DNA of 64,000 nucleotides from Alphaproteobacteria bacterium (GTDB taxonomy: Bacteria; Pseudomonadota; Alphaproteobacteria; CALKHQ01): NCBI GenBank assembly GCA_965227515.1, contig CBDDFZ010000001.1, forward strand, positions 2,720,001 through 2,784,000, in the 5' to 3' direction. The translations under genes and the position numbers were made by a program. The notes under the pieces were generated by a model. It did no database searches, was not told where the DNA came from, and worked only from the letters and a program-made list of their open reading frames with translations. Positions 23,722 to 42,901 of this stretch are shown piece after piece (position 1 is the stretch's first letter; each line of letters starts with the position of its first letter).

Positions 23722-23731
23722 ATGGCGCGCC
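23722..23731 (+). repeat. attL core
   Basis: ATGGCGCGCC identical to 42500-42509; followed by ...AGGA...TTCGAACC, echoing the tRNA T-arm. Confidence 0.82.
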
Positions 23732-23829
23732 TCGAAGGAGAAACTTCGAACCGCCTCATCGAAACCCTACAAGAATGGAATGACCACCTCAAGGCAGCCA
23801 ACATCGACCTCGGGGAGCCGTCGCCATGA
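23722..23829 (+). CDS. Detached C-terminal 35 aa of the serine recombinase (MARLEGETSNRLIETLQEWNDHLKAANIDLGEPSP)
   Basis: Begins at the att core in the same frame as recombinase codons M-A-R at 42500; TGA overlaps mobC ATG; not in the ORF track. Confidence 0.72.
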   Translation: MARLEGETSNRLIETLQEWNDHLKAANIDLGEPSP

Positions 23830-24275
23830 GACATGCCGACGTTTCCCCACATGGCAGCGACCTTGGCAAGGCTTTTCGCGGGGCTGCGGCGAAGCCCCCT
23901 TCCAAGAGCAAGGCGAACGCCGCCGCGCCCTTCTCCATCCGGTTCACGCGGGAAGAGCGGGACCGGCTGCAAGCTGAGGCAGGCCAGCAACCGCTTGGGG
24001 CGTACATTCGCTCCCGGCTGCTGGGCGATACGGCGGACAAGCGCCGTGTGTCCCGTCGCCCCAGGATCGACCAGGAAGTGACCGCCCGGTTGCTCGCCGA
24101 GCTGGGGAAGTCCCGCCTCGCCTCCAACATGAACCAGCTTGCCAAGGCCGCGAACATGGGCACGCTCGATCTTGGCCCTGAGGTTGCGCGCGATATTCGG
24201 GCGGCTTGCGCCGCGATTACGGACATGCGGGCCGCACTGATTTTGGCGCTCGGCGTGAGGCCGGAGCGTGGCTAA
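23826..24275 (+). CDS. mobC: MobC-like relaxosome accessory protein
   Basis: RHH-like 'FSIRFT.EER..L...AG...LG.YIR', 'L.ELG.S.LASN.NQLAKAAN.G'; directly upstream of relaxase. Confidence 0.82.
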   Translation: MRHADVSPHGSDLGKAFRGAAAKPPSKSKANAAAPFSIRFTREERDRLQAEAGQQPLGAYIRSRLLGDTADKRRVSRRPRIDQEVTARLLAELGKSRLASNMNQLAKAANMGTLDLGPEVARDIRAACAAITDMRAALILALGVRPERG

Positions 24276-25567
24276 TGATTCTCGTCGGCAACCAACGCGG
24301 CGGGGCCAACGAGCTGGCCCAGCACCTGCTCAAGGATGAGAACGAGCATGTCGAGGTCCATGAGCTTCGCGGGTTTGCTTCGGAGACCCTCCCCGAGGCG
24401 CTGAACGAGGCCTATGCCGTGAGCCGAGGGACGCGGTGCAAGCAGTTCCTCTTTTCCCTGAGCCTCAATCCGCCGCCCGGCGAGCGGGTCAGAACAGAGG
24501 CGTTTGAGAGCGCCGTCGACCGGGCCGAACAGAAGCTGGGCCTCACGGGCCAGCCACGCGCCATCGTGTTCCACGAGAAGGAAGGCCGCCGCCACTGCCA
24601 TGCGGTGTGGTCGCGGATCGATGCGGAGGCAATGAAGGCCGTCCCGCTGCCCCACTCCAAGCTGAAGCTCCAGGACGTTGCGCGAGAGCTGTATCGCGAA
24701 CACGGTTGGACCATGCCGCGCGGCTTCGTGAACTCGATAGAGCGCGATCCGCGCAACTTCACTCTCGCCGAATGGCAACAGGCCAAGCGTAACGACCGCG
24801 ATCCGCGCGAGATCAAGGCGGCGATTAAGGAATGCTGGGCGGTCAGCGACTCCCAGGCTGCGTTTGCACACGCCCTGAGCCAGCGCGGCTACGTGCTGGC
24901 GCGAGGGGACAAGCGAGGCTTCGTCGCTATCGATCGTCGCGGCGAGCCCTACGCGATTTCGCGCTCGGTCGGCATCCGGGCGAAAGAACTGCGGGCCAGG
25001 CTTGGGGACTCCGCCTTGCTGCCATCCGTCCAGGACGCCAGGGCGCAGATGGCCCGCGACATGGAAGCGAACCTGGCCAGGCTGCAGAAGGAACAGGAAG
25101 CGGCCCTTGCCTCACGGCTGGGAGACTTCAGAGGACAGAGGGATGCGCTGGTCCGGCAGCAGAGAGCTGAGCGTGAGGCCCTGGCAATGGGCCATGCCCG
25201 CCGCCAGGATTCGGAGATGCAGGCGCGGCAAACTCGCTTCAACACCGGGTTACGCGGTTTCATCGACCGGCTCTCCGGGCGGCGCAAACAGATTCAGGAG
25301 CAGAACCAGGCTGAAGCCTATGAGGGCCTAGTGCGCGACCGGCGGGAAAAGGACGAGCTGATCTTCCGCCACCTCGACCAGCGCCGCGACCTTCAGCAAC
25401 GAGCTGCCAAGCTCAGAGCTGTGACAGCCGAGCGGACACAAGAGCTAAGCCAGGACATCACGGCCTATCGGGAGCTGAACCAGGGGCACCGTGAGCGGTT
25501 GGATCGGCTGCGCGCCGGACGCCCGAGCAACAATCGGCAGGGGCCCGAACGCGACTTCGAGCGATAG
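24275..25567 (+). CDS. Relaxase/mobilisation nuclease (MOB-P-like)
   Basis: 'LFSLSLNPP', HUH motif 'FHEKEGRRHCHAVWSRID', C-terminal coiled coil; TAATG overlap with mobC. Confidence 0.9.
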   Translation: MILVGNQRGGANELAQHLLKDENEHVEVHELRGFASETLPEALNEAYAVSRGTRCKQFLFSLSLNPPPGERVRTEAFESAVDRAEQKLGLTGQPRAIVFHEKEGRRHCHAVWSRIDAEAMKAVPLPHSKLKLQDVARELYREHGWTMPRGFVNSIERDPRNFTLAEWQQAKRNDRDPREIKAAIKECWAVSDSQAAFAHALSQRGYVLARGDKRGFVAIDRRGEPYAISRSVGIRAKELRARLGDSALLPSVQDARAQMARDMEANLARLQKEQEAALASRLGDFRGQRDALVRQQRAEREALAMGHARRQDSEMQARQTRFNTGLRGFIDRLSGRRKQIQEQNQAEAYEGLVRDRREKDELIFRHLDQRRDLQQRAAKLRAVTAERTQELSQDITAYRELNQGHRERLDRLRAGRPSNNRQGPERDFER

Positions 25568-26029
25568 CGGCTGCCGTTCGGTAAATGACAAATGGGTTGC
25601 ATCAGCAACCCTGCTTCCGGCGAGGATGGGGGTAGCAAGGGCCAGGGTCAGCGCGGCGGGCGCACAAGCCGAAGGCGCGGAGCCTCGGGAGACCGCGCCC
25701 TGGCCTGCGCGAGGGGCGAAGCCCCTTAGTCAGACCATACCCGCAGGGTAAGACAGGAAAGCCTGCCAGGAGCGTCAGCATAGCGACGCCAAAGGCGGGG
25801 TGCGGGAAGCGGCGATCGGCTGGACAAGGTTCCCGGCGCACCCGCAGGAGCGAAGCGGGACCGAGTGCGCCCTTGGGAGGCCGTCAATATGAGGGCGCTG
25901 CCAAGCGACCCGCGCGAGGGATCGAAGCCGAATGGCCGAGACCGCTTGCGGGCTCAGTTCACGAGAGCCCAACCCGCAGGGCGCGCCCGGCATTCATTGC
26001 ATCATTCGCGATGACGCAATATTTTTCTC

Positions 26030-26065
26030 TTGACTCGACACCTTTGTGCGAGTTAGAACCGCATC
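26030..26065 (+). promoter_or_regulatory. Sigma70-like promoter of the R-M operon, probably leaderless
   Basis: TTGACT(26030)-N18-TAGAAC(26054) only 6 nt before ATG; no SD; imperfect inverted repeat ACTCGACA/TGTGCGAGT over the spacer. Confidence 0.55.
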
Positions 26066-26680
26066 ATGAACGATGATGCAGTATTTTTCATAAACCTCAA
26101 GGACGCAGCGCGCGTGTCGGCTGGTTATCCCCTGCGCGGCTCTGCTGAGGCGCTTGGACCGGGCGACGTGCGTTTTGTCCAGCTCAAGGACGTAAGCCTT
26201 GATGCCGACATCAACTGGACAGGCATCCCATCGGTGGAGCTGCCGTCCAAGAGAGTGCCGGAATGGCTCAGCGATAACGATGTCATTTTCTCAGCACGCG
26301 GCACGAAAACGCTGGCCTATCCGGTCACCGGCACACCCGGTCGCGCGGTATGTGCTCCGCAGTTCTATGTCATCTCAATCAAGGACCCGGAGAAACTGCT
26401 CCCGGCATTCCTCGCCTGGCAGATCAATCAGAGGTCAGCGCAGGATTATCTCGCGCGCTCGGCCACTGGCTCCTACATCCAGAACATTCGCAGGGGCGTC
26501 TTAGAAGCTCTCCCCGTCGCAGTTCCGTCGCTCCGCGTGCAGCGCGTCATCGTCGACTTTTGGCAAGCAGCACGACGCGAACGCACAACGCTCAATCAGC
26601 TTATCGAAACCCGTAACCGACAACTCGACGCGCTCGCCGTCGGGCTACTGCAGCCGCGCCAAAGGGGGGCACGTCAATGA
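26066..26680 (+). CDS. Half-size HsdS-like (single TRD) protein
   Basis: 'DVIFSARG', 'LLP.FLAWQIN', 'L..LPV.VPSL..Q..IV' HsdS-type motifs; coupled to hsdM. Confidence 0.8.
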   Translation: MNDDAVFFINLKDAARVSAGYPLRGSAEALGPGDVRFVQLKDVSLDADINWTGIPSVELPSKRVPEWLSDNDVIFSARGTKTLAYPVTGTPGRAVCAPQFYVISIKDPEKLLPAFLAWQINQRSAQDYLARSATGSYIQNIRRGVLEALPVAVPSLRVQRVIVDFWQAARRERTTLNQLIETRNRQLDALAVGLLQPRQRGARQ

Positions 26681-28188
26681 ACGCACAGGTCAGACAGGAC
26701 GAGATCAACAAGGCCGTGTGGGAAGCTTGCGATACCTTCCGGGGCACGGTCGATGCCGGAGTCTACAAAGACTACGTGCTGACAATGCTCTTCCTCAAAT
26801 ATATCAGTGACGTCTGGAACGATCACTACGAAGCGTATCAGAAGGAATACGGGGACGAGCCAGCACTTATAAACGAGATGATGAAGAATGAGCGCTTCGT
26901 TCTGCCAGAGAGCGCAAATTTCTATGCACTTTACCAGCGTCGACACGAAGCCGGAAACGGAGAACGAATTGACAAGGCCCTTCATGCAATTGAAGAGACC
27001 AATATCGGAAAGCTTCGCGACGTTTTTCAAGATATCAGCTTTAACTCCAACAAGCTCGGCGAAGAAGCTCACAAAAACGAGCTGCTTAAAGAGCTGCTAG
27101 AGGATTTTGCCAAAGACAAGCTAAACCTAAGACCAAGTCGAATTGGCAAGCTGGATATCATCGGCAATGCGTATGAATATCTGATAAAGCAGTTTGCTGC
27201 TGATGCTGGGAGGAAAGCCGGGGAATTCTACACCCCACCGGAGGTCTCTGAACTAATCGCTGAATTGGTCTCTCCTCAAGAGGGCGACGAAATCTGTGAC
27301 CCGACGTGCGGCTCCGGCTCCCTGCTCATGAAATGTGGAAAGCGCGTGCAGATTGAGAACAAGGGTTCGAAGAAATATGCCCTGTATGGACAGGAAGCGA
27401 TTGGCAGCACATGGGCTCTCGCTAAAATGAACATGTTCCTCCATGGAGAGGACAATCACCGCATCGAATGGGGCGATACAATCCGCAACCCAAAACTGCT
27501 TGATGGCGAAGACAGCCTCAAGCATTTTGATGTCGTTGTGGCCAATCCGCCCTTCTCTCTGGAAAAGTGGGGCCACAGCACGGCAGAAGGCGACAAGTTC
27601 GGGCGGTTCCGGCGCGGCATTCCCCCGAAGACCAAGGGGGACTACGCCTTTGTGCTGCATATGGTCGAGACCATGAAGCCCAAGAGCGGGCGCATGGCCG
27701 TCGTCGCCCCGCACGGCGTTCTTTTCCGTGGGTCAGCGGAGGGAAGAATTCGCAAAAAACTGGTTGATGAAAACCTGCTAGACGCCGTGATCGGCTTGCC
27801 TGAGAAGCTCTTCTACGGAACGGGCATCCCAGCCGCGATCCTCGTGTTCCGCAAAAAAAAGGGCAACAAGGACGTCCTATTTATAGACGCCAGCCGCGAG
27901 TTCGTGGCGGGCAAGAACCAGAACCAGCTAACCGACGATCACATCGCGAAAATCGTGCAGACTTATCAGGCGCGTAAGAGCGTCAACAAATATGCCTACC
28001 TCGCCACGCCCGAGGAGATGGCGGAAAACGACTACAACCTGAATATCCCCCGGTACGTCGACACATTTGAGGAAGAAGAAGAAATTGACTTAGTGGAGGT
28101 TCGGACCGAGCGCGAGAAACTAAAAGCCGAACTCGCAGACCTCGAAGCGCGGATGGACGGCTACCTTAAGGAGCTGGGCTATCAATGA
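26677..28188 (+). CDS. hsdM: Type I R-M methyltransferase (m6A)
   Basis: GEFYTP, DPTCGSG (motif I), NPPF (motif IV), HGVLFRG, YNLNIPRY. Confidence 0.96.
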   Translation: MNAQVRQDEINKAVWEACDTFRGTVDAGVYKDYVLTMLFLKYISDVWNDHYEAYQKEYGDEPALINEMMKNERFVLPESANFYALYQRRHEAGNGERIDKALHAIEETNIGKLRDVFQDISFNSNKLGEEAHKNELLKELLEDFAKDKLNLRPSRIGKLDIIGNAYEYLIKQFAADAGRKAGEFYTPPEVSELIAELVSPQEGDEICDPTCGSGSLLMKCGKRVQIENKGSKKYALYGQEAIGSTWALAKMNMFLHGEDNHRIEWGDTIRNPKLLDGEDSLKHFDVVVANPPFSLEKWGHSTAEGDKFGRFRRGIPPKTKGDYAFVLHMVETMKPKSGRMAVVAPHGVLFRGSAEGRIRKKLVDENLLDAVIGLPEKLFYGTGIPAAILVFRKKKGNKDVLFIDASREFVAGKNQNQLTDDHIAKIVQTYQARKSVNKYAYLATPEEMAENDYNLNIPRYVDTFEEEEEIDLVEVRTEREKLKAELADLEARMDGYLKELGYQ

Positions 28189-29432
28189 ATGAGGTTAGTA
28201 AGTCATCGGCATATCCAGAGACCGTGCAGCCGGGAATTCCGAAGCTGCCGACTAATCCACCGGCGGGATGGCAGCGCACACGCTTCGGCGAGCATCTTTT
28301 TGAAGAGAAGCGACCGGTGACGATGAATGATGATACGGAGTATGACCTCGTCACCGTGAAGCGCGCACGGGGTGGTGTTGTTAAGCGAGAGACTAAATGC
28401 GGGGCGGACATCTCGGTCAAGTCGCAGTTCGAGGTGAAGTCCGGTGACTTCCTTATTTCAAAGCGTCAAATTGTCCACGGCGCATGCGGGCTTGTCCCTG
28501 ATGATCTGGATGGCGCTACGGTTTCGAACGAGTACGCAGTACTTCGGGGGAATGACACGATTGATCTCCAGTTCCTGAAGCACTTCGCACACTCCATCTA
28601 TTTTCAGCAAACGTGTTTTCATTCAAGCATTGGCGTTCACATCGAGAAGATGATCTTCAAGACTGAACAATGGTTTGACTGGGAATTCGATCTACCACCG
28701 TTGAAGGAACAACGGTGCATTGCTGATGCGCTCTCCACTTGGGATGAATCACTCCGTGTAAATCGTGCGTTGATCGAAAATAGCCTAGCTTTGAAGGCCG
28801 CACTGTTAGAGGGACTTTTTTGCCAGGTTTTTGAGGTGCCCGCGAGCGGGCAACCCATAAGCTTGGGCCAGATTGCATCACTCGAGAAGCGCAGAGTTGA
28901 TCCATCTTCGTTGCACGAGGAAACAAAGTGTATCGAGCTTGAGCATATCGAGCAAAATACAGGGAGACTCGTCGGTTTCGATGACGCGCGAAACCTCGCC
29001 AGCTTAAAGGCTGTCGTTGAGCCTGGTTATATTCTGTTCGGTAAACTACGCCCTTATTTGCGCAAGTACCATTTCGCGGAATTTTCTGGGGCGTGTTCTA
29101 CGGAAATTTGGCCGATCAAGGCCGACGCGTCCCTGTGTCACCCGAAGTGGCTGTACTACCTCACGCAGACCGACGCTTTTTTCTCTGCAGTGAGCGTATC
29201 TTCCGGTTCAAAGATGCCTCGGGCGGACTGGGGCCTGGTATCCAGCGTCGAGTTCAATCTTCCGAACTTGGTGGCCCAAGAAACAACTGTGAGAATGTTG
29301 GATACGGCTGAAAACATCGTCGACTGTTTGATTCATAAACAAGCTTGTCTTGAGTCCGAGAAGAAAGCTTTGATGCAACAGCTCCTCACAGGCAAACGCC
29401 GCGTGCGAATAGCAAAGGAGATTACAGTATGA
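28185..29432 (+). CDS. hsdS: Type I R-M specificity subunit
   Basis: Two TRDs with 'LPPLKEQ..IA..LS..D' and terminal 'KKALMQQLLTGK.RV'. Confidence 0.92.
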   Translation: MNEVSKSSAYPETVQPGIPKLPTNPPAGWQRTRFGEHLFEEKRPVTMNDDTEYDLVTVKRARGGVVKRETKCGADISVKSQFEVKSGDFLISKRQIVHGACGLVPDDLDGATVSNEYAVLRGNDTIDLQFLKHFAHSIYFQQTCFHSSIGVHIEKMIFKTEQWFDWEFDLPPLKEQRCIADALSTWDESLRVNRALIENSLALKAALLEGLFCQVFEVPASGQPISLGQIASLEKRRVDPSSLHEETKCIELEHIEQNTGRLVGFDDARNLASLKAVVEPGYILFGKLRPYLRKYHFAEFSGACSTEIWPIKADASLCHPKWLYYLTQTDAFFSAVSVSSGSKMPRADWGLVSSVEFNLPNLVAQETTVRMLDTAENIVDCLIHKQACLESEKKALMQQLLTGKRRVRIAKEITV

Positions 29433-31102
29433 GTAAGTCACATTCATTTTCGATTTATCTTCTCAAGGAGGATTTCGATGCGAGGAACGCACTGAAGGCC
29501 GATCACACGCTGGACGATGCGGTCGCGGGCGAAGCCCTTCCCGATGGTTCAACCTTATTCGTACTCGACAACGCGCCAATTCCCCCCTGGTGGAAGGCCT
29601 ATTTTGGGATTCAGAAAGACCTGAGGCAGGCGCTCAAGGGCGCTGTCGTATTTCTTCCTGTCGATGGCCGTGTGTTTGCCATCACGTTCGGTCATGTCTA
29701 TCACAATCTTGTCGACACCAGCTACGAGTACGATTTCGGATTGCGCGTGACTCTCAACTGTCTCGACCCTGACAAGCTGAAGAGCACCGACATTCTGGAA
29801 CCCAGCGGTGCGAGGCGCCAGCGCACCCAGATGCCGACGGATTCTGATCTCACCTACTTCGACTTCGATCAGGACACGACCATTCTGAAAAGTCTGACCG
29901 GCAAGGTGAAGGATGAGCACAAGAGCTTGTTCAAGCACGCGACGGGTGCGAGCAACATCCGCGTCAGCTCGGATGTCACACCCGGCGGTTTGACTGAGCT
30001 ATGTGAGAAGCTGCTGAACCTCTACGAGGATGACACATACAAGACGACGTTTCCTGGGCTGCAGAACATCTCCCCCGTACGCGATCCCTCCATCCTCGCG
30101 GCTCTGGATGGCCTACTGGTCGAGGCGGTGAAGGCGAAGAGCGACAGCCTGTCTCTTAGCGTGCCGGAGATTCTGAACTACCATGAGGGGTTATGGGCCA
30201 CCTTCTCCGGCGCGGGTGCGGGGCTCATCTACGACGACGTATTCATCGGGCGGTACTATGAGTATCTGAACCAGCGTCAGGTTTCGCTTGACACCATCGA
30301 CGTCGAGACACTGCGCAAGCACTGCCTCAACCTCACCAACGAAGAAGGTCAGCCGCGCGGTGAGCGTCACAGCGTATATAAGTGCCTCATTTTTGATACC
30401 GCCCTTGGTGAATCCGGTGCGACCTACCACCTTTGCGACGGGAACTGGTACCTCGTTGATTCCGACTTTGTTACAGGGTTGTCGACGTTCCTGGACCCAT
30501 TCTGCGCTGAGAGCACATTCCCTGACTTCACACATGAGAACGAGGCCGCCTTCAATGAAGCCATTGCCGCTACAGGGACCGGGCTGATCTGCCTCGACAT
30601 GACCAGCATTGCTCCTGACGGGCAGAAAGGCGTGGAGCCTTGCGATGTGTACGAATTGAAGGACGGAAAGGCTGTCCTGCACCACGTCAAAATTTCTACG
30701 CTCTCCGCCCAGCTGAGCCACCTGTTCAACCAGGGAACCAACTCCGTCCACCTGCTGCGCGACGATGCTGACGCCCGCGACAAGCTGAAGTCGCTCGTTT
30801 CGGCGAAAGCCCCGGCGAATGCTCAGGATCAGTTCGCATCCCCGATCGACGGAGACCGCTTCAAGGTCGTCTTCCAGATCGTCACGCACAAGAACGCCGA
30901 GGCGAAGGCGCTCAATCTGCCGCTCTTCTCCCGAATCAGCCTGATGCGGGCGCTGAAGGACCTCCGCAGGATGGGGATCGAGGCGGAGTTCGCATTCATC
31001 AAAGACGCTACACCGACCTCGGCAGGAAAGAAGAAGAAGCGACAGTCCAAAGGCGACGACCAAGCAGCCAACAACGACAACCAAGGAGCGGAGGCGGCGT
31101 GA
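29429..31102 (+). CDS. TIGR04141/DUF6119-like sporadically distributed protein
   Basis: 'SIYLLK', 'FAITFGH...YEYDFGLRVTLN', 'G.WY.VD', 'E.CD...HVK...S..LSHLF.QG', 'LPLFSRISL' recognised from memory; needs HMM check. Confidence 0.75.
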   Translation: MSKSHSFSIYLLKEDFDARNALKADHTLDDAVAGEALPDGSTLFVLDNAPIPPWWKAYFGIQKDLRQALKGAVVFLPVDGRVFAITFGHVYHNLVDTSYEYDFGLRVTLNCLDPDKLKSTDILEPSGARRQRTQMPTDSDLTYFDFDQDTTILKSLTGKVKDEHKSLFKHATGASNIRVSSDVTPGGLTELCEKLLNLYEDDTYKTTFPGLQNISPVRDPSILAALDGLLVEAVKAKSDSLSLSVPEILNYHEGLWATFSGAGAGLIYDDVFIGRYYEYLNQRQVSLDTIDVETLRKHCLNLTNEEGQPRGERHSVYKCLIFDTALGESGATYHLCDGNWYLVDSDFVTGLSTFLDPFCAESTFPDFTHENEAAFNEAIAATGTGLICLDMTSIAPDGQKGVEPCDVYELKDGKAVLHHVKISTLSAQLSHLFNQGTNSVHLLRDDADARDKLKSLVSAKAPANAQDQFASPIDGDRFKVVFQIVTHKNAEAKALNLPLFSRISLMRALKDLRRMGIEAEFAFIKDATPTSAGKKKKRQSKGDDQAANNDNQGAEAA

Positions 31103-31145
31103 GAAAGCGTAAATCGCAGTCGGCCGCCGCGAAAGGAAGAACGAG

Positions 31146-32129
31146 ATGGCTGGCCTGACTACTCTTAACGACGTATTGGAGGCCACCGCCAAATTGCCGC
31201 GGGCGGTACTGCTCGGCAACGGCTTCTCAATTGCGCAAAGCGGCGGACAGTTCGGGTATGGAAGCCTGCTTGAGCACAGCGGTTTGGCAGGAGATGCTCC
31301 TGTCCGCCAACTATTCGAGATGCTTCAAACGGTCGACTTTGAAGAGGTAATGCACGCACTGGAAGCTGCAGCTTTGGTGGAGTCTGCATACGCAGACCAA
31401 CGGCGATCAGAGCAATTCCGTGTTGACGCGGGAGTCATACGCGATGCTTTGATACATGCGGTTCGAACCGTGCACCCTGGAATACAGTTTGAGATTCCAG
31501 AAGATGACATGGCTGCGTGCGCTGATTTTCTTGGGAAGTTTCAGCAAGTATTTACACTGAATTACGATCTGTTGCTTTACTGGGTCATTCTCAATGCACC
31601 GAATAACAAACATAACGATGGATTTGGCTTGGGTGCGCAGATTGGTGGCTTTCGTACATTTAGTGAACAAGCATACTGTTCGGTCTACTATCTCCACGGC
31701 GCACTGCATTTGTTTCTAAATGACGAATTGGAAACGCAGAAGCGTATCTCGGCAGGCGGAATAATTGATGCCATCGCCAGGTCGATCAAGAAGCGCAAGC
31801 AACTACCTCTTTTTGTTGCGGAAGGTACATCAATCCAAAAAGCATCAAAAATTCACTCCATCCCTTATTTGAGGCACTGCTACGAGCAATTGTCGACAAT
31901 TCAGGGTAGTCTATTTGTCTTTGGGCATTCTGCCTCGGGTGTGGATCATCACATCTACGATGCTATTTTTGAGAGCCGGATCACTATATTCGTATGCTTT
32001 GTGCATGACCCAAAGAATCAACTGAATGCCGTGGCGGAAAAATTCGCTCCCTATCAAGTCCGCAGAGAGGATGTCGCATTTTACTATGTAGACGCTTCGA
32101 GCGCGAATGTCTGGGGGCATACGGCATGA
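31146..32129 (+). CDS. DUF4917-like protein, SIR2-like fold
   Basis: LLGNGFS, FTLNYDLLLYW, DGF, YLHGALH, PLFVAEG, FVFGHS...D.HI. Confidence 0.78.
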   Translation: MAGLTTLNDVLEATAKLPRAVLLGNGFSIAQSGGQFGYGSLLEHSGLAGDAPVRQLFEMLQTVDFEEVMHALEAAALVESAYADQRRSEQFRVDAGVIRDALIHAVRTVHPGIQFEIPEDDMAACADFLGKFQQVFTLNYDLLLYWVILNAPNNKHNDGFGLGAQIGGFRTFSEQAYCSVYYLHGALHLFLNDELETQKRISAGGIIDAIARSIKKRKQLPLFVAEGTSIQKASKIHSIPYLRHCYEQLSTIQGSLFVFGHSASGVDHHIYDAIFESRITIFVCFVHDPKNQLNAVAEKFAPYQVRREDVAFYYVDASSANVWGHTA

Positions 32130-35398: not shown

Positions 35399-36123
35399 TG
35401 GATGGGATACTGGGTTATGGCGGAGAGAGGATTAGGTATACCGTTGCCCGAAACCCGAGCCTGTCGTCCAGAGTTCGGATTCATGTTCATCCTAATGGAC
35501 TGATAGAGGCCGAGGCACCGCCGGACGCCCTTCCGGCTGACATAAAGGCAGCCCTGCGTAAACGTGCGCGATGGATCACGCGTCAGCTCCGCGAACTCGC
35601 GGGCGCTCGGGCTCACGCATTGCCTCGGGAGTTTGTGAGCGGCGAAACGCATTTTTTCCTCGGTAGGCGATTTCAGCTGAAAGTCATTCAGTCTGACGAC
35701 GAGCCATCGTCGGTGCTTCTCAAGGGTGGGCAGATCAGGATCACCCTGCCCTGTTTCGACCGGGCGGCGGTGAAGCGGAGGCTGAATGACTGGTACTGGG
35801 CCAAGGCTGAGGATTACCTGGGTCGGCGCCTCAGCGAGGTCGCAACACGCATCGCGTGGATTGATGATGAGCCCGAACTCAAACTGCTCGCGATGAGGAA
35901 GCAGTGGGGAAGCTGCTCGCCCTCGGGGGCGATCCATTTGAATCCGTGGCTTGTGCGGGCTCCGCGCGAGTGCATCGATTACGTGATTGTCCACGAGCTT
36001 TGTCATCTGAGAGAGCACAATCACAGCAGGCGTTTCTACAGCCTGTTGGATCGGCAGATGCCGGGCTGGCGTCACACCAAAACTCGGCTCGACGGGATGG
36101 CCGAGCTGCTGCTCGCGGAATGA
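35398..36123 (+). CDS. YgjP/DUF45-like zinc metallopeptidase
   Basis: 'GETH..LG', 'QWGSCS', 'IDYVIVHELCHL.E.NHS..F'; usual position after hsdR. Confidence 0.9.
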   Translation: MDGILGYGGERIRYTVARNPSLSSRVRIHVHPNGLIEAEAPPDALPADIKAALRKRARWITRQLRELAGARAHALPREFVSGETHFFLGRRFQLKVIQSDDEPSSVLLKGGQIRITLPCFDRAAVKRRLNDWYWAKAEDYLGRRLSEVATRIAWIDDEPELKLLAMRKQWGSCSPSGAIHLNPWLVRAPRECIDYVIVHELCHLREHNHSRRFYSLLDRQMPGWRHTKTRLDGMAELLLAE

Positions 36124-36440: not shown

Positions 36441-37010
36441 TCACCCGGCACGCTGAACCCGCTTGCTCGCTGTGCGGTACGCGCGCCAGGCTCGGTCACG
36501 AGCGCTCTTGCCTCGTTCAACCAGGGCTCGCTGCGCCTCGTCCTGCACAGGTGCGCTGCGGCGGCGATCCCAGATCAGTTCGGCCTGCGCATAGCGGACG
36601 TAGGCCCGCACTCTTTCGGCTTGGACGGCATCCAACTCCGGCTCCTGATCGATGGGTCCGGTTAGCTCGATGATCTTGTGGATGTGCTTGCGGACCAGCC
36701 GGGGCGGCAGTTCGTCCAGCCAGTGAATCAGTTTGGCGGAATGGGGATAGACCTTGTCCTTCCGAACGCCTCGCCTTTCTCGTAGCTGGCGTTTCACCGC
36801 CGGGGGCAAGCCAGGATCATCCGCCGTCATTGCGGCGTCCGAGTAGTACCCTGTGAGGATCAAGCGCCAGCGAATCTGGCTGTAGCGGAGATAGACCGTG
36901 TTGCGGCTGAGGCCGCATACGTCGGCTGCTTCCGCGGGCGTTCGTCGTTCCGAGTAGCATCGAAGCAGCGTTTCAGCCTGCGCGGCTGTCATGCGGCTGC
37001 GCTTGCTCAC
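36441..37010 (-). CDS. Hypothetical HTH protein resembling an IS1595-type transposase lacking the DDE core
   Basis: 'KRSRM...LLRCY...TPAEAADVCGLSRNTV' HTH; GTG start. Confidence 0.55.
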   Translation of the reverse strand: MSKRSRMTAAQAETLLRCYSERRTPAEAADVCGLSRNTVYLRYSQIRWRLILTGYYSDAAMTADDPGLPPAVKRQLRERRGVRKDKVYPHSAKLIHWLDELPPRLVRKHIHKIIELTGPIDQEPELDAVQAERVRAYVRYAQAELIWDRRRSAPVQDEAQRALVERGKSARDRAWRAYRTASKRVQRAG

Positions 37011-38124: not shown

Positions 38125-38148
38125 GCAACCTGAGAAAGGAGAACCGTG

Positions 38149-38277
38149 ATGGCTCAGTATGACCGGGTTGGCGGCGGAACCTTCGGCGTCTATCGCAAGC
38201 GCGGTGGCGGCGGAGGTTGGGGAGGCGCGATCGTGCTGATCGCGATCGGCCTCCTCGTGCTGGCATCGATCGGCTAG
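38149..38277 (+). CDS. 42-aa single-TM protein (MAQYDRVGGGTFGVYRKRGGGGGWGGAIVLIAIGLLVLASIG)
   Basis: Strong AAAGGAGA RBS, open frame to TAG, C-terminal TM helix; below the ORF-track cutoff. Confidence 0.72.
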   Translation: MAQYDRVGGGTFGVYRKRGGGGGWGGAIVLIAIGLLVLASIG

Positions 38278-38296
38278 CGCTCCACCCCAACCCATC

Positions 38297-38324
38297 GAAC
38301 GGGGGGCCTTCGGGCCCCCCGTTC
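38297..38324 (+). terminator. GC-rich hairpin (attenuator or stabiliser) before the coupling-protein gene
   Basis: GAACGGGGGGCC-TTCG-GGCCCCCCGTTC perfect 12-bp stem with TTCG loop; weak U-tract. Confidence 0.6.
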
Positions 38325-38339
38325 TCGTTGGAGAGACCA

Positions 38340-39950
38340 ATGTCACACCCGTTCAACGAAGAGCATCGCTTCGGTAGCGCTAATTGGTCAGATGAAGCCG
38401 ACATGCGGGCGGCTGGCCTGTTTGACTCTGATGGTCCGCAGATCGGCTATGTCGGCAGCCGGGCCATGCATCTCTCGGGCGATGCCCCGATGATCACGAT
38501 CGGCGGCGCAGGCTCGGGCAAGCTCCGGGACCTGCTGGCCTACGTGGTCTGCAATTCGCCCGGCATTCCGATGATCGTGCTCGATCCACGCGGTGAGTTG
38601 GGCGCGATCTCGATCCATGTCCATGCGGGACATGATGAATATGCCTACTTCTGGAACCCAGTCCGCACCTGCAACCTGCCGCAGCATCGCTGCAACCCGC
38701 TCGACATCCTGAAGCTCGATGCGCCGGACTTCCATGCGAACGTGCGGTTCATCACCGAGGGCTTCATCGCGCTGCGCGGCGGTGAAGGTCAGTATTTCTG
38801 TATGCGCGCCCGCGAATGGATGGGGGGCATTCTCAAGTCCCGCGTCGAGCAGCTCGGCGGCACGTCGCTGCCGGACCTCTACCGCATCGTCAACTCCATC
38901 GAGTCCGACCGCACCGCCTGGGCGGATCAGCTAGAGGCCATGCTTGTCAGTCGGTTCGACGATGTGCGCCGCGTAGCTGCGGAGATGCTGACCAAACAGC
39001 AGGACGCGCCGAAGGAATTCGGCGGCATCCTGGGCGAGATTTATGCCCATCTCGGCTTCCTCGACGATCCGGTGCTACTGGCCTCTCTCGAAGAGCCGGA
39101 GTTTTCGCTCTCTGCGCTCGTCGATCCAAGCCGCGTGGCGAAGGTCTTCCTGAACATCCCCGCCGAGTATCTCGCGCTCTGGTCGCCCCTGGTCCGGCTC
39201 TTCTTCACCGTGGCCATGCTCTATAAATCGCGGCGTCCGGGCGGTCGGCGCGTCATGCTCGTGGTCGACGAGGCGGGCCAGCTCGGGCGTTTCGAAACGC
39301 TCTTGCGCGCGTTCACTTATGGACGCGGCGCGGGCGTTCGCGCCTGGGCCATATTCCAGGACGCCGGACAGATCGTCCGCAATTTCGGTGCCCCCGCGCT
39401 TCAGGGATTCCTCGGCTCGGCGCAGATGCGTCAGTTCTTCGGCGTGCGCGACTACGAGACGGCACAACTGATCTCCTCGATGCTGGGCACCGAGACGCTG
39501 GAATATGACGACAAGCTTCAACAGGACGCGGCCAAGCGCCAGAAGTGGGAGACGCTGCGCCGGGTGATGAGCGACGGCGATCCGTTCGAAGCGGCGTATG
39601 ACTATGCGCACTTCAAGCGCAATGCCGGGCACCGTACCAAGCAGGCGCGTCCCCTCATGACACCCGACGAGGTGTTGGCGCTGCCGGAGGATCGCCAGAT
39701 CCTTTTCATCTCGGGAAAGAATCTGAAGCCGATCCTCGCGGCCAAGTACCCCTACTTCACGCGCCGCGAGATGGCGGGCAAGTACCTGGCGAACCCCTAT
39801 CACCCACCCACGGACAGCGTTGTCGTCGCCACTCGTCTGGGCATGCGCCGCCGTCGGGTAATCACGGAGCCCGTGCCTCGGCGCTACGCAGGTTTCCCCC
39901 AGTTCCAGGGCGGAACCTTGTCATACGTGGAAGGTCACAAACCGGTCTGA
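38340..39950 (+). CDS. VirD4/TraG-like type IV coupling protein
   Basis: FGSANW, Walker A GGAGSGKL, DPRGEL, NPLD, Walker B VVDEAGQL, GRGAGVR...FQD..Q, 'RPLMTPDEV'. Confidence 0.88.
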   Translation: MSHPFNEEHRFGSANWSDEADMRAAGLFDSDGPQIGYVGSRAMHLSGDAPMITIGGAGSGKLRDLLAYVVCNSPGIPMIVLDPRGELGAISIHVHAGHDEYAYFWNPVRTCNLPQHRCNPLDILKLDAPDFHANVRFITEGFIALRGGEGQYFCMRAREWMGGILKSRVEQLGGTSLPDLYRIVNSIESDRTAWADQLEAMLVSRFDDVRRVAAEMLTKQQDAPKEFGGILGEIYAHLGFLDDPVLLASLEEPEFSLSALVDPSRVAKVFLNIPAEYLALWSPLVRLFFTVAMLYKSRRPGGRRVMLVVDEAGQLGRFETLLRAFTYGRGAGVRAWAIFQDAGQIVRNFGAPALQGFLGSAQMRQFFGVRDYETAQLISSMLGTETLEYDDKLQQDAAKRQKWETLRRVMSDGDPFEAAYDYAHFKRNAGHRTKQARPLMTPDEVLALPEDRQILFISGKNLKPILAAKYPYFTRREMAGKYLANPYHPPTDSVVVATRLGMRRRRVITEPVPRRYAGFPQFQGGTLSYVEGHKPV

Positions 39951-39966
39951 GATGAAGGGCAGTGTC

Positions 39967-40260
39967 ATGAGCGACGATGTGAAGAGGGACAACACGGGCA
40001 AGGAGATCGACACCGCTCAGAGCAGGAGCAACGGGCCTAGCTTCGTTGCCCTTTCTGCGCGGGATGTCGGGGAGAAGACATACTACAACCGAGTCGGGGC
40101 GGCCTTTCCTCACAAGGACGGTGAGGGCCACACCGTGGATTTGGAATCGGTGCCGGTGAACGGGCGCATCATCTTGCGGACGCCCAAGGACCGGCTTCAA
40201 TCCATGAAGGACGGCACCGGCGCGGCACAGGAGCGCCGGAGCCAGGAGCGTGGTCGATGA
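39967..40260 (+). CDS. Small mobile-element protein, possible ssDNA-binding
   Basis: 'RVGAAFPHKDG.G..V.L..VPV.G.I.LR.P' motif familiar from alphaproteobacterial mobile elements; Arg-rich tail. Confidence 0.7.
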   Translation: MSDDVKRDNTGKEIDTAQSRSNGPSFVALSARDVGEKTYYNRVGAAFPHKDGEGHTVDLESVPVNGRIILRTPKDRLQSMKDGTGAAQERRSQERGR

Positions 40261-40535: not shown

Positions 40536-40549
40536 AGGCAAACTATTCG

Positions 40550-40579
40550 TTGCAATGAACACATGTTCATGTTATGTTC
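40550..40579 (+). promoter_or_regulatory. Sigma70 promoter with overlapping alphaproteobacterial LexA box
   Basis: TTGCAA(40550)-N17-TATGTT(40573); GTTC-N7-GTTC at 40565-40579 over the -10; inverted repeat ATGAACA-CA-TGTTCAT at 40555-40570. Confidence 0.78.
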
Positions 40580-40631
40580 TCCTCTTCGGTTCACTTGATG
40601 AAGGGGAGAAAGAAACAAGAGGAAGAGCGGC

Positions 40632-40988
40632 GTGACCAACAAACAGCACCAAGGCCAGAGCAATAAGACAGAGGGTGATACGCTGGTCCTGGATAGGCTG
40701 GCGGATCGCAATCCATCGGATTTCGATCCGGCGGAGTATCTCCCCGATATGGAGGAATTCGATCTCAGCGAGGAACAGGCAACGGAGTTGCTGACCACGC
40801 TTTGGGAGATCATGAAAGCCTTCGTCGACCTTGGCTTCGGCGTCGATTCAATCCACCGGATTTTTCCCGAGTTGGTCGGGGTTTCTGGGGAATTGGAAGC
40901 CGATCAGGTAGACTCGAAGGACGACCATCTGACAGACACATTCGACCAAGCCGCGTCCAGCGACGCGGAGCAGAAGAAGGATTCATGA
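40632..40988 (+). CDS. Acidic hypothetical protein coupled to the recombinase
   Basis: GTG start after GAGGAAG; ATGA overlap with recombinase; D/E-rich. Confidence 0.7.
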   Translation: MTNKQHQGQSNKTEGDTLVLDRLADRNPSDFDPAEYLPDMEEFDLSEEQATELLTTLWEIMKAFVDLGFGVDSIHRIFPELVGVSGELEADQVDSKDDHLTDTFDQAASSDAEQKKDS

Positions 40989-42901
40989 GCGAGACCATCA
41001 TCAACAGCAAAGCCGTCATATACTGCCGCGTCTCCAGCACGGCGCAGACGCGGCGCGGCGATGGCCTCGGCTCTCAGGAAACGCGGTGCCGCGAATACGC
41101 GCGCGTGCGCGGCTACGAGATCGTGCAGGTGTTCACCGACGATCTGAGCGGCAGCGCCGTCGACCGTCCTGGCGTCAAGGCGATGCTCTCCTTCCTGAAA
41201 AAGCATCGCAGCAATCCACACGTCATTCTCGTCGACGATATATCGCGCCTGGCCCGCTCGGTGAGCGCGCACATCGAATTGCGTGCCGCGATAACGCTGG
41301 CAGGCGGGCGGCTGGAATCCCCGACCCTCGAATTCAATGACGATGCCGACAGCGAGTTGCAGGAATATATCCTCGCGACCGTCGCGCAGCATCAACGCCG
41401 CAAGAACGCTGAGCAAACCAAGAACCGGATGCGTGCGCGCGTCATGAACGGCTACTGGGTCTTTCAGGCTCCGGTGGGCTACCGCTATGAGAAGTCCGGG
41501 GGGCACGGCAAGGTGCTCGTCCGCGACGAGCCTCTTGCCTCTATCGTGCAAGAGGCGCTCGAAGGCTTCGCCACTGGCCGCTTCCAGATTCAGGCCGAGG
41601 TCAAGCGCTTCCTGGAATCCCATCCTCAGTATCCGCGCGACCGCAACGGTGAAGTCCGCAATCAGCGCGTCACCGAGCTGCTGACCCGTGGCGTGTATGC
41701 CGGGCTGGTCGAAGCGCCGTCCTGGGACGTGGGTGTGCGAGAGGGCAAACACACCGGATTGATCTCGTTGGAGACCTTCCGAAAAATCCAGGACCGCCTC
41801 AACGGCAAGGGCCGTGCGCCGGTCAGAAAGGACCTGAGCGAGGACTTCCCGCTTCGCGGCGCGGTCGTGTGCGGGTGCTGCGGAACGCCACTGACGGCTT
41901 GCTGGTCGTCCGGTCGCAAAGCTCGCTATCCGTATTACCTCTGCCCGAAGCGGGGCTGTGAGAGCTACGGCAAGTCGATCAAGCGCGATCAGATCGAAGG
42001 TGAGTTCGAGGCGCTGCTGCTCACCCTCCGGCCCTCCGAGGGCCTGTTCCGGGTGGCCTGCGCCATGTTCAAGAAGCTCTGGGACACGCGGCTTGAATCC
42101 CACAAGGCCGAAAGCCGTTCGCTCGGCGCTGCGATCACGAAGATCGAGCAGGATGTCGATCAGCTGCTCGACCGGATCGTCGAGACGGATTCGCCGTCGG
42201 TGATCCGTGCCTACGAGAAGCGGATCAAGGAGATGGAGCTGCGCAAGATGGAACTGCGGGAAAAGGTCTCACAGTGCGGGCGACCGATCCTCGGCTTCGA
42301 CGAGTCACTTAGAACCGCCCTCGATTTCCTCGGAAACCCGCAGAAACTCTGGGCTTCTGACCGTATCGATCACAAGCGCGCTGTGCTCAAACTCACCTTT
42401 GGGGAGCGTCTGTCATACACCCGAGATGGAGGGTTTAGAACCGCCGATGTGGCCTTACCTTTCAAGGCTTTAGCCGACTTCTCAGGGGGTAAAAGCAGAA
42501 TGGCGCGCCCGGCAGGATTCGAACCTGCGGCCCCAGGATTAGGAATCCTGTGCTCTATCCTACTGAGCTACGGGCGCCCATGCGGCAGCTCGGCCAGTCC
42601 GGAACGGGTGAGTCCGCGCTGTCGATATGTCCGGCAATCTAGTCGCTGGCGGGCCGAATTCCAAACTGATTGGCAGCAGCGGGGGCGCCCGGTATCGTGG
42701 CGCCGGGCGGACGTGGTGGAATTGGTAGACACAACAGACTTCGCGAACGGGAGTGCCCGTGGGGAAACCCGCGGTGCAGAACCGCTCAAATTCGGGGAAA
42801 GCTTCGCGGCCGGCGCAATTTCACGTGGCCGTTGCCGATCCCGAGCCAAGCCCGTGCCGGGGCCTCTACCGGGCAACGGTGCGGGAAGGTGTAGAGACTA
42901 G
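40985..42901 (+). CDS. Large serine recombinase; native coding ends at attR (~42509), then reads through tRNA genes in the integrated state
   Basis: Catalytic YCRVSS, 'SG...RPG', 'DDISRLAR', 'APVGY', zinc ribbon CGCCG...YYLC...C, coiled coil. Confidence 0.92.
   Translation: MSETIINSKAVIYCRVSSTAQTRRGDGLGSQETRCREYARVRGYEIVQVFTDDLSGSAVDRPGVKAMLSFLKKHRSNPHVILVDDISRLARSVSAHIELRAAITLAGGRLESPTLEFNDDADSELQEYILATVAQHQRRKNAEQTKNRMRARVMNGYWVFQAPVGYRYEKSGGHGKVLVRDEPLASIVQEALEGFATGRFQIQAEVKRFLESHPQYPRDRNGEVRNQRVTELLTRGVYAGLVEAPSWDVGVREGKHTGLISLETFRKIQDRLNGKGRAPVRKDLSEDFPLRGAVVCGCCGTPLTACWSSGRKARYPYYLCPKRGCESYGKSIKRDQIEGEFEALLLTLRPSEGLFRVACAMFKKLWDTRLESHKAESRSLGAAITKIEQDVDQLLDRIVETDSPSVIRAYEKRIKEMELRKMELREKVSQCGRPILGFDESLRTALDFLGNPQKLWASDRIDHKRAVLKLTFGERLSYTRDGGFRTADVALPFKALADFSGGKSRMARPAGFEPAAPGLGILCSILLSYGRPCGSSASPERVSPRCRYVRQSSRWRAEFQTDWQQRGRPVSWRRADVVELVDTTDFANGSARGETRGAEPLKFGESFAAGAISRGRCRSRAKPVPGPLPGNGAGRCRD
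42500..42509 (+). repeat. attR core overlapping the tRNA-Arg CCA end
   Basis: ATGGCGCGCC. Confidence 0.85.
42501..42577 (-). tRNA. tRNA-Arg(CCT), intronless
   Basis: Reverse complement GCGCCCGTAGCTCAGTAGGATAGAGCACAGGATTCCTAATCCTGGGGCCGCAGGTTCGAATCCTGCCGGGCGCGCCA; full cloverleaf, 77 nt. Confidence 0.97.

Follow-up and report, generated by a model that had tools for sequence, protein, structure and literature searches.

An integrative mobilizable element at a tRNA-Arg gene

The 64,000-nucleotide stretch of alphaproteobacterial DNA analysed here, called the window in the following, contains an 18.8-kb integrative mobilizable element (IME; positions 23722-42509) at the 3' end of a tRNA-Arg(CCT) gene. 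Its features are compiled in Table 1. The element carries an integrase gene and is flanked by att sites at a specific chromosomal target. It encodes a MobC-like protein, a relaxase and a coupling protein without a complete mating-pore system, and by this gene content it is an IME. No T4SS pore genes were detected among the ORFs scanned from 23.7 to 42.5 kb, several small ones of which had no family match. Within the cargo region, hsdS and hsdR are separated by inserted DUF6119/TIGR04141 and DUF4917 genes. PHROGs and NCBIfam offered no name for the tail ORF, the acidic ORF or the 92-aa ORF, and for the 102-aa ORF nothing except a weak match to a PHROG of unknown function. By its position, the acidic ORF is a candidate accessory or directionality factor. 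Large serine integrases require such a factor as a separate protein in order to excise, and the tail is a further candidate on the strength of its predicted docking. We also considered pPDL2 (PMC3516476) as a relative and dismissed it; it is unrelated and has a 328-aa phage-type integrase.

Table 1. Features of the element and its insertion site (window coordinates)
Feature	Position	Strand	Remarks
attL	23677-23766		Host arm B, core 23722-23731, element arm P'; TCGAAC at 23746-23751
Tail ORF, 35 codons	23722-23829	+	Would be the recombinase C-terminus on the circle; TGA overlaps mobC ATG
mobC-like relaxosome accessory gene	23826-24275	+	NikA-like/MobC (Pfam)
MobA/VirD2-type relaxase	24275-25567	+	Pfam; ATG overlaps mobC stop
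Cargo: type I restriction-modification genes, YgjP-like metallopeptidase gene last	26066-36123	+	Order: S-like fragment, hsdM, hsdS, hsdR
HTH protein, possible regulator	36441-37010	-	Weak Pfam matches, below curated cut-offs
VirD4/TraG-type coupling protein	38217-39950	+	Pfam; start codon uncertain
Two small ORFs, 102 and 92 aa	39952-40535	+	4-nt overlap at 40257-40260; no family match
Acidic 118-aa ORF	40632-40988	+	Stop overlaps recombinase ATG
Large serine recombinase (int)	40985-42901	+	ATG at 40985; 505 codons to the core at 42500, then antisense-tRNA read-through; stop 42899-42901
attR	42455-42544		Arm P within int CDS, core 42500-42509, tRNA arm B'; TCGAAC at 42519-42524
tRNA-Arg(CCT)	42501-42577	-	Left intact; encoded CCA end is the probable crossover site

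By domains and fold, the integrase (Int) is a large serine recombinase. Pfam recognized a Resolvase domain at residues 10-157 (E 1.3e-26), and R15 and S17 are invariant across 53 sequences. The Zn_ribbon_recom domain scored above its Pfam cut-off and the Recombinase domain, with 20.5 bits, just below its cut-off of 21.1. In the AF2 model, helices 352-400 and 404-430 form a hairpin, the inserted coiled coil. Foldseek matched the integrases of SPbeta, Bxb1 and PhiC31 over 520-608 columns, with E values between 3.9e-17 and 2e-13, and no curated family of PHROGs or NCBIfam was reached at its cut-off. The reading frame of Int enters the core in frame (...GKSR/MAR). In the integrated state the protein has 638 aa, and the part that starts at the core accounts for 133 of these, in agreement with the ~130 aa of read-through across the antisense strand of tRNA-Arg that the first-pass annotation had described.

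The core 10-mer ATGGCGCGCC lies at 23722-23731 and 42500-42509. Because the tRNA-Arg(CCT) gene occupies the minus strand from 42501, the core consists of an A followed by the antisense of the encoded CCA, the discriminator base and five acceptor bases. By itself, this repeat is weak evidence for the element ends. It occurs five times in the window versus 0.91 times expected, a count reached in 1 of 100 shuffles, and the three other copies, at 45100, 52439 and 60196(-), lack att and tail features. Leftward of 23722, low-GC foreign DNA with an OLD-family gene continues, and no tRNA fragment was found further left. An empty site was sought in 30 relatives; these were distant kin only (69-75% identity in the flanking gene) and none had a syntenic empty site. 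Likewise, the sequencing-run contigs examined revealed the integrated form only, with no excision and no circle junction. One X1 contig spans the integrated state, and the X23 and X24 contigs do not bridge the site. A joint 23648>42491 (side 35), away from the att cores, is present in one X1 contig; the letters between are not known.

Related recombinases at the CCA end of tRNA genes

Among 8000 candidates scored, 2998 were homologous to the recombinase at E <= 0.001. Of the 120 homologues listed, with 57-81% identity to the recombinase, 103 have a tail that matches an antisense-tRNA pattern. At 51 of 63 related loci, a minus-strand tRNA gene ending in NTGG, the antisense CCA end, was found at or near the 3' end of int (39 Arg, 5 Leu, 3 Ser, and one each of Ala, Lys, Thr and Met), and the read-through tails of int are all in one frame. 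The family has moved between at least seven tRNA types, tRNA-Glu in the genome studied here being one of them. In the integrated state, the read-through tails range from 3 to >130 aa and their conservation is limited to the tRNA sequence; the annotated lengths of the recombinases range from 479 to 768 aa. An acidic ORF lies directly upstream of int in 38 of the 63 loci. The other end, with a conserved tail, was located for 17 elements, namely that of the window, one more in this genome, locus L011, and 14 of 19 relaxase-anchored loci. In L033 and L045, remnants of int adjoin attL, which would be explained if attR can itself serve as a target. Representative proteins matching the tail numbered 1049. 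On the basis of these comparisons, the split-recombinase layout holds for the whole large family and is thus wider than the first-pass annotation had proposed. A survey of Mesorhizobium describes five IMEs and one ICE with serine recombinases (PMC8627217), and members of the split-recombinase family may already be among those it covers.

The far-end tail continues the recombinase frame

The tail ORF, read from 23722 in the frame of the recombinase, encodes MARLEGETSNRLIETLQEWNDHLKAANIDLGEPSP. Two earlier claims, that the core lies in frame inside the recombinase gene with the att crossover in its ORF and that the joined ends specify a 540-aa protein, were borne out: the former at both core copies, the latter by a frame of 505 plus 35 codons without a stop between. 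The predicted chain of acidic ORF, recombinase, mobC and relaxase could be traced through all of its overlaps in the window. At each joint, the stop of one gene overlaps the ATG of the next: ATGA at 40985-40988 for acidic ORF and recombinase, ATGA with the mobC ATG at 23826 for tail and mobC, and TGATG at 24273-24277 for mobC and relaxase. An overlap of tail stop and mobC start is seen in 13 of 16 elements, in 10 of these as ATGA.

The 17 tails share the consensus xARLDGExSNxLFExLxxWNxxL, in which N10, W19 and L23 are invariant and L16 is nearly so. As expected in the first-pass annotation, the far-end tail is therefore kept in related elements at the protein level. For tail bases 30-69, the diversity per site was 0.44/0.29/0.645 at codon positions 1/2/3; inside the att half-site, it was 0.29/0.37/0.38. 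This pattern is that of coding sequence beyond the att half-site and indicates selection on the tail as a protein.

An alignment of the tail with the C-termini of homologous recombinases had been suggested as a check. Natural fragments in which an Int-like C-terminus and the tail share one frame do exist, as seen for 8 of the 150 best tail-profile matches and for the metagenome contig L092, but no full-length fusion of ~540 aa was found; the longest protein among the 150 tail matches listed has 223 aa. Several fused forms are partial or decayed, and L092, P0140 and P0164 carry internal deletions. A word-indexed search with the 43-aa tail ORF of the window returned no longer proteins, with only four candidates sharing words; such a search is insensitive because the tails have few 5-residue words in common. 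An attP-specific DNA pattern was detected in one metagenome contig and in no viral contig. Small ORFs starting at the core NTG made up 55 of the 150 best tail matches, so production of the tail as a peptide of its own is also conceivable.

Half-site spacing and crossover

The right half-sites share TCGAAC, located at +19 in the tRNA arm and at +24 in the element arm, where the P' features of attL are common to the 17 elements. Across these, the identity between B' and P' was 44% at an offset of +5 bp and 17-36% at 16 other offsets. In serine integrases, the second motif of the DNA-binding domain is described as 5 bp nearer to the centre in attB than in attP (PMC11722253), and the spacing of the right half-sites matches this rule at the sequence level. 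The left arms, B versus P, showed no shared motif and no enriched offset across the 17 elements. For this reason we dropped GCCGACT, which lies 5 bp nearer to the core in the host arm of the window than in the element arm, as a general motif. Large serine integrases characteristically cross over at 2 bp inside a short core and lack long direct repeats. The identity between attL and attR spans 3-12 nt. In 8 of 17 pairs, attL and attR have different bases immediately ahead of TGG, and in L011 the first mismatch to the right occurs at +4. These flanking mismatches place the crossover probably within TGG, i.e., the encoded CCA end of the tRNA.

Predicted docking of the tail on the recombinase

Complex prediction with the tail as a separate chain yielded ipSAE values of 0.62/0.62/0.50 for tail and Int, compared with 0.00 for the best of three controls. 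The partner pLDDT was at least 61, and at least 77% of the contacts were common to the runs. Of 80 solved complexes, 58 attained this mark, as did 2 of 110 mismatched pairs; these counts are approximate, own alignments having been used. The predicted contacts connect tail residues 9-30 with Int residues 362-369, 441-449, 455-470 and 490-495, which in the AF2 model correspond to the first helix of the coiled coil and to the helices that follow the coiled coil; W366, F448, L449, L470 and P492 in these regions are invariant or nearly so. The prediction thus places the tail helix at the coiled-coil base, which is also the binding site of directionality factors. Natural fused fragments were modelled in place of the 540-aa protein joined in silico. 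In the AF2 model of P0140, the tail forms a helix at residues 187-201 with a pLDDT of ~80, and a VIA search with the fused fragment returned generic coiled-coil hairpins only.

Discussion

We consider it likely that the element belongs to a large IME family whose large serine recombinase uses the encoded CCA end of tRNA genes and carries attP inside int. The attP site would lie within the last part of the coding sequence, with the left half-site P encoding ...LPFKALADFSGGKSR, the right half-site P' encoding the start of the conserved tail, and the crossover falling in the TGG between them. The circle junction would read ...GGTAAAAGCAGA-ATGGCGCGCC-TCGAAGGAG..., in frame. On the free circle, the whole 540-aa gene would end in the amphipathic helix SNxLFExLxxWNxxL, and acidic ORF, int, tail, mobC and relaxase would form a single overlap-coupled chain, with the coupling protein gene and the two small ORFs upstream on the same strand. 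Integration would cut this chain. The recombinase would lose the helix and read antisense tRNA as a variable junk tail, and mobC and relaxase would come to lie at the far end, adjoining host DNA. The circle would in this way express mobC and relaxase through int, and the tail may alter the behaviour of the recombinase.

The first-pass annotation had further proposed that transfer is licensed only from the excised circle. In the window, an OLD-family gene on the same strand ends 166 nt before attL, no plus-strand terminator-like site was found between the two, and in the host flank the core ATG is preceded, at a distance of 4 nt, by the SD-like GAAGGAAG. On sequence grounds, the tail ORF, mobC and relaxase may therefore be expressed by read-through in the integrated state, which in this window counts against strict circle-only licensing. 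A consensus scan of 23300-24400, a weak one in a genome with 66% GC, revealed no sigma-70-like site.

Tentatively, the exchangeable C-terminal helix may be a built-in directionality switch. Tethered at the factor site, it would lock the circle enzyme in integration mode despite the acidic ORF; integration would remove the helix, and the factor could then drive excision. If true, whether the element is circular or integrated would decide in which direction its own recombinase works.

The tail may have a plainer role. attP could merely sit on the 3' end of int, with the tail kept for P', the mobC ribosome-binding site and translational coupling, and the two C-termini would be equivalent. The first 30 tail bases are indeed constrained at the DNA rather than the codon level, the (G/E)P(S/A)P-type tail ends, such as GGGGAGCC in the window, resemble in our own reading a mobC Shine-Dalgarno sequence, and the integrated enzymes carry tails of widely varying length without conservation beyond the tRNA. 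However, neither a ribosome-binding site nor a half-site needs the coding periodicity of bases 30-69 or the constancy of W19, L16 and L23, and the helix is predicted to dock on (nearly) invariant Int residues, with controls at zero. We regard this simpler account as possible, though doubtful. Less probable still is that the tail acts mainly in trans as a separate 35-45 aa protein started at the core NTG, a directionality factor or relaxosome partner whose fusion to Int is incidental. A start codon is available, the base before TGG being A, G or T in 14 of 15 ungapped tails, more than a third of the best tail matches begin there, GAAGGAAG precedes the ATG in the window, and it was as its own chain that the tail was predicted to bind. 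Yet the TG of NTG is fixed by the CCA of the tRNA, so a possible start is no sign of selection, the host arms vary between elements without a common motif, and the circle has no stop between int and tail, which means that the fused form would be made anyway.

It is very improbable that the 10-bp repeat is a chance match and that the true ends, or the circle junction, lie elsewhere. The number of copies in the window and the foreign DNA that runs on to the left of 23722 would fit such a view, but att features are confined to the copies at 23722 and 42500, the DNA further left holds no tRNA fragment, and NTGG, TCGAAC at +24, tail and mobC recur together with different tRNAs and cores.

In Tn916, joining of the ends brings the transfer genes behind a promoter located at the opposite end, and these genes are expressed after excision. 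The present element is like Tn916 in that circularization links transfer genes to the other end of the element. Tn916, however, has a tyrosine integrase and a transcriptional coupling over a non-coding joint, whereas the joint of the present element is spanned by a reading frame that overlaps mobC. The first-pass annotation had drawn its analogy to mycobacteriophages with attP in the repressor gene. In BPs and its relatives, attP lies in a coding gene whose C-terminus differs by state, but it is the repressor that is split, the integrase is of the tyrosine type and the C-terminus controls stability (PMC4557955); here, the recombinase itself is split. In the archaeal SSV1-type integrases, attP lies in the int ORF, a tRNA gene is the target, integration splits the gene and excision restores it (cf. 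PMC8371274). Unlike these tyrosine recombinases of archaeal viruses and plasmids, the enzyme described here is a bacterial large serine recombinase, the exchange is limited to its last ~35 codons, and the frame, once restored, is coupled to mobilization genes. The element works like an SSV1-type split integrase but, with its serine enzyme, is not a member of that group. The RAP44-like Riemerella phages are bacterial, have attP in int and leave the tRNA, targeted at its 3' end, intact. They differ in their phage nature, the XerD-type tyrosine recombinase and the position of the site at gene nt 25-43 (5' end), and the excerpted account describes no link to transfer genes (PMC12169736).

A helical module on the C-terminus is also known from engineered integrase-RDF fusions of SPbeta and PhiC31, where a linker of ~18 residues places it at the base of the coiled coil (PMC11722253; PDB 9dxd, 9teh). 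In the SPbeta fusion, the tethered module sets the direction of recombination (PMC11722253). Those fusions are man-made and favour excision, whereas the natural one would exist only on the integrating circle. Our literature searches turned up no account of a serine recombinase whose gene is divided at a tRNA by the element's own att site.

According to the Islander paper of 2014, serine integrases do not target tRNA genes (PMC4383910). We found one phage exception (PMC6536676). This is the Paracoccus phage vB_PamS_Pami6, which like our element carries a serine recombinase and was assigned to a tRNA gene (tRNA-Met) of an alphaproteobacterium but is a phage, and for which the excerpted report describes no split gene (PMC6536676). 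The large family described here contradicts the textbook view by targeting the conserved T-arm and CCA end of tRNA genes. If true, the CCA end of tRNA genes would be a near-universal landing site for a serine integrase family. A state-dependent C-terminus would explain the erratic annotated lengths of these recombinases and the many small ORFs called at island ends. As a natural integrase of this kind, the enzyme would also offer a new way of controlling directionality, which is the chief unsolved problem in the use of serine integrases for genome editing.

A recombinase gene split by its own attachment site

The core ATGGCGCGCC is present at both ends of the element, and the features between and around the two copies are listed in the table. 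ARAGORN found a single tRNA in the window, and its placement shows that the core consists of one base and, after it, antisense sequence of the encoded CCA, the discriminator and five bases of the acceptor stem. The 10-mer occurs five times in the window against 0.91 expected, five copies being reached in 1 of 100 shuffles, and att features are absent at the three other copies. Since the core is not rare alone, the case rests on its context and on the comparison with related elements.

The recombinase gene (int) reaches the core after 505 codons and continues through the antisense strand of the tRNA, giving 638 aa in total. Its frame resumes at 23722 for 35 codons, here called the tail, whose TGA overlaps the mobC ATG. 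The first-pass annotation had described these coordinates and reading frames as a recombinase gene split by its own att site, and all of them hold in the window. The full-length SPbeta, Bxb1 and PhiC31 integrases are structural matches of the AF2 model of Int (mean pLDDT 81); the enzyme belongs to the large serine recombinases. Among the genes between the two cores, none for a mating pore was seen, and the island is thus classed as an integrative mobilizable element.

Features of the element and its flanks (window positions)
Feature	Position	Strand	Remarks
OLD-family AAA/TOPRIM gene	21574-23556		Same strand, outside the element; GC 0.46 vs ~0.67 for the host
attL core	23722
mobC-like gene and MobA/VirD2 relaxase	between cores
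Type I restriction-modification system, then YgjP-like peptidase gene	26066-36123		Between cores; interrupted by DUF6119 and DUF4917 genes
HTH protein	between cores	minus
VirD4/TraG coupling protein	between cores
Two small ORFs and acidic ORF	between cores		Acidic ORF stop overlaps int ATG
Recombinase (int)	ATG 40985, stop 42899-42901	plus	Resolvase, Recombinase and Zn_ribbon_recom domains
attR core	42500
tRNA-Arg(CCT)	42501-42577	minus
Repeat right of the tRNA	43181-43308		~70-130 nt; at least 10 other genome copies, 75-93% identity

Within the restriction-modification region, the DUF6119/TIGR04141 (557 aa) and DUF4917 (327 aa) genes sit between hsdS and hsdR, and the YgjP-like metallopeptidase gene overlaps the hsdR stop. 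Together with the restriction-modification operon, these genes may form a composite defence module.

The recombinase family at tRNA genes

With the 505-aa part of Int as the query, 8000 candidates were scored and 2998 matched at E <= 0.001. The 120 listed homologues of these 2998 are 57-81% identical and 479-768 aa long, and their C-termini share a conserved LPFKAL motif and diverge directly after it. The sequence that follows fits a pattern such as MARPxGFEPxT...SIQLSYG in 103 of the 120 listed; this pattern is the translated antisense of the tRNA acceptor, T and D arms. Among the 17 without a pattern match, seven show the motif by eye, four end a few residues past M-A, three are truncated or frameshifted, two have unrelated C-termini and one reads the tRNA in another frame.

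A minus-strand tRNA lies at -20 to +160 nt from the end of the int match in 51 of 63 related loci (39 Arg, 5 Leu, 3 Ser and one each of Ala, Lys, Thr and Met). NTGG ends all 51 tRNAs, and the extensions share one frame in the related loci where int reads through. The tRNA of locus L039, 155 nt off, is probably not the actual target. At attR, the int strand is rich in A over the final ~12 nt of the element arm ahead of TGG (K, E and N codons), both in the window (42480-42499) and in 50 related loci. The integrated tRNA thus gains a T-rich 3′ trailer from the element, which may be relevant to tRNA 3′ processing or termination.

Attachment sites

We compared the half-sites of the element (P, P′) with those of the host (B, B′). 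Counted from the base that precedes TGG, TCGAAC starts at 24 nt in P′ and at 19 nt in B′, where it corresponds to the T-loop. Across 17 elements, the identity between B′ and P′ was 44% at offset +5 and 17-36% at the 16 other offsets. The available text of PMC11722253 places the motif for the second DNA-binding domain 5 bp nearer the centre in attB than in attP; judged by these alignments, the right half-sites follow this rule. The left arms (B vs P) showed no comparable offset relation in the 17 elements, and the elements have no conserved sequence in the host arm downstream of the tRNA. A GCCGACT match in the window was ruled out as a general left-arm motif, no such relation being present across the 17 elements.

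In 8 of 17 pairs, attL and attR have different bases before TGG, and the rightward attL/attR identity ends as early as +4 (locus L011). These observations place the crossover dinucleotide, most likely, at TG or GG of the antisense CCA.

A conserved tail at the opposite end

In L011, attL was found inside the locus itself. The relaxase was searched in 25 further genomes and matched in 21; in 19 genomes the match and int shared a contig, with the match upstream, and the 1.8 kb upstream of the match was examined. A core match followed by an in-frame tail was present in 14 of these 19 stretches. One further stretch (L029) has a tail with an in-frame TGA, and its relaxase is broken too; core plus tail was not found in the stretches fetched for L017, L018, L036 and L042.

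The tail alignment has 17 rows, namely 16 tails (the second element of the window's own genome was left out) and a fused metagenome contig, L092. N10, W19 and L23 are invariant and L16 nearly so, with the consensus MARLDGExSNxLFExLxxWNxxL. In the 15 ungapped tails, the diversity per site at codon positions 1, 2 and 3 is 0.44, 0.29 and 0.645 for bases 30-69, which by codon position is the pattern of a translated frame. For bases 0-29 it is 0.29, 0.37 and 0.38, with TGG and TCGAAC fixed, and this is the pattern of a DNA site. The tail end and the mobC start overlap in 13 of 16 elements, in 10 of them as ATGA; in the other three, mobC starts ~14 to 100 nt past the tail. The proposed split-gene anatomy is real and conserved family-wide among the related elements compared. 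The tail is a translated, selected sequence, which would be joined to the recombinase only when the element ends are joined.

Two elements of one genome (G020), L091 at its second relaxase locus and L085 (L041), carry an acidic insertion of 14 residues that separates the SN motif from the LFxxLxxW helix, so the linker length before the helix varies.

Natural fused forms

An intact P-core-P′ junction pattern was found in one metagenome contig, L092, where ...PFKALADFSEGKSR-LARPGGETSNELFEVLADWN... lies in one frame, followed by the mobC start; the upstream part of this int has an internal deletion or frameshift. A search of 1.84 billion representative proteins with the tail profile gave 1049 matches at E <= 0.001. 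Among the best 150 of these, 55 begin at the core, 83 have unrelated host-flank residues upstream, 3 missed the motif and 9 were flagged for an Int-like C-terminus before the tail. By eye, the flagged P0135 is decayed, and P0237 is false as a fused form. The proteins P0140, P0164, P0242, P0192, P0187, P0222 and P0248 align to the Int C-terminus of the window and then to its tail, so that the expected alignment of the tail with recombinase C-termini is borne out by natural sequences. P0140 and P0164 lack large parts of Int, and no full-length fused protein occurs among the best 150 of the 1049 matches (longest 223 aa).

Decayed int 3′ remnants lie directly left of attL in L033 and L045. The attL host arm in the stretches upstream of these loci (L080 and L088, respectively) resembles the int 3′ end. 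Several stops interrupt the L033 remnant; in L045, the match to the P arm covers the 13 nt immediately before the core, and a transposase-like ORF adjoins. These host arms suggest tandem insertion into an occupied site, and the natural fused junctions may stem from such insertion, not from circles.

In ORFs at attL flanks, the real tail is often preceded by two to three tail-start-like units in tandem (MARPxExSSN...), as in P0121, P0126, P0137, P0163, P0206 and others. These units resemble arrays of partial copies of att or of the tRNA end and are possibly scars of repeated integration.

Other members in the same genome and flanking insertions

A second member on C1, a contig of the window's own genome (C1:192383-197962), has an Int of 56% identity that reads into tRNA-Glu(CTC). 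In this 5.5-kb element, an 11-nt core recurs 5.5 kb upstream and is followed in frame by MASPRGFCSNTLFQTLEDWN... Its int looks intact and its tail is conserved; by eye it carries transposase-like ORFs, and mobC is missing. The third element is a 2.1-kb remnant without int at tRNA-Arg(CCG) (C1:1590117-1592297), with a tail-like ORF at attL, a 12-nt core repeat and a P arm reduced to ~12 nt.

The OLD-family gene may have inserted separately and earlier at the same tRNA site; neither a tRNA fragment nor a second repeat was found at its left edge. The repeat right of the tRNA is probably REP- or MITE-like.

Predicted role of the tail and the acidic ORF

When the recombinase (505 aa) and the tail (35 aa) were entered as two chains, complex prediction gave ipSAE values of 0.62, 0.62 and 0.50, and 0.00 for three controls. 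The partner pLDDT did not fall below 61, and the runs had at least 77% of the contacts in common. Among 80 solved complexes, 58 came up to this docking mark, as did 2 of 110 mismatched pairs; these counts are only rough here, as own alignments were used. In the predicted complex, tail residues 9-30 (including N10, L16, W19 and L23) contact Int 362-369, 441-449, 455-470 and 490-495, which in the AF2 model form the beginning of the first coiled-coil helix and the helices after the coiled coil. The contacted residues include the invariant or nearly invariant W366, F448, L449, K469, L470 and P492.

According to the available text of PMC11722253, the SPbeta factor has an essential helix, which packs between the inter-hinge segment and the second DNA-binding domain, and a factor fused to the integrase C-terminus via an 18-residue linker works. 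The natural tail has a geometry similar to that of the engineered fusion, with ~18 residues and then a helix; this resemblance is a predicted one.

In 38 of 63 loci, the acidic ORF immediately precedes int, and in the window the two overlap as ATGA. It matched no known family and is, by position, a candidate accessory factor.

Integration state and transfer

Neither excision, nor a circle, nor an empty site was seen in the sequencing-run contigs and 30 relatives, all distant kin. The OLD-family gene stops 166 nt before attL, and a scan there found no plus-strand terminator-like site. In the host flank, the SD-like GAAGGAAG precedes the core ATG. From these features, some expression of the tail ORF and mobC/relaxase in the integrated state is possible.

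SSV1-type archaeal tyrosine recombinases likewise have attP inside the integrase gene, but the enzyme there is a tyrosine recombinase, whereas it is a serine recombinase here. In Tn916, transfer genes are expressed after circularization. RAP44-like Riemerella phages have attP in a tyrosine integrase gene split at its 5′ end (available text of PMC12169736), and mycobacteriophage BPs has it inside the repressor gene (available text of PMC4557955). In 2014, tRNA genes were stated not to be known targets of serine recombinases (PMC4383910, in the text available); in the accessible part of PMC6536676, one phage with a serine recombinase is assigned to tRNA-Met. A Mesorhizobium survey lists serine-recombinase integrative mobilizable elements, their sites being given in its supplement (PMC8627217, main text as available). 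In the literature searched, we found no description of a serine recombinase gene crossed by its own attP, of family-wide use of the tRNA CCA end, or of a state-dependent integrase C-terminus.

The integration state would decide which C-terminus the recombinase carries and whether mobC and the relaxase are coupled to it. This regulatory reading is plausible and fits every conserved feature of the sequences. The split-gene arrangement and its coupling to mobC are a variation on known kinds of arrangement.
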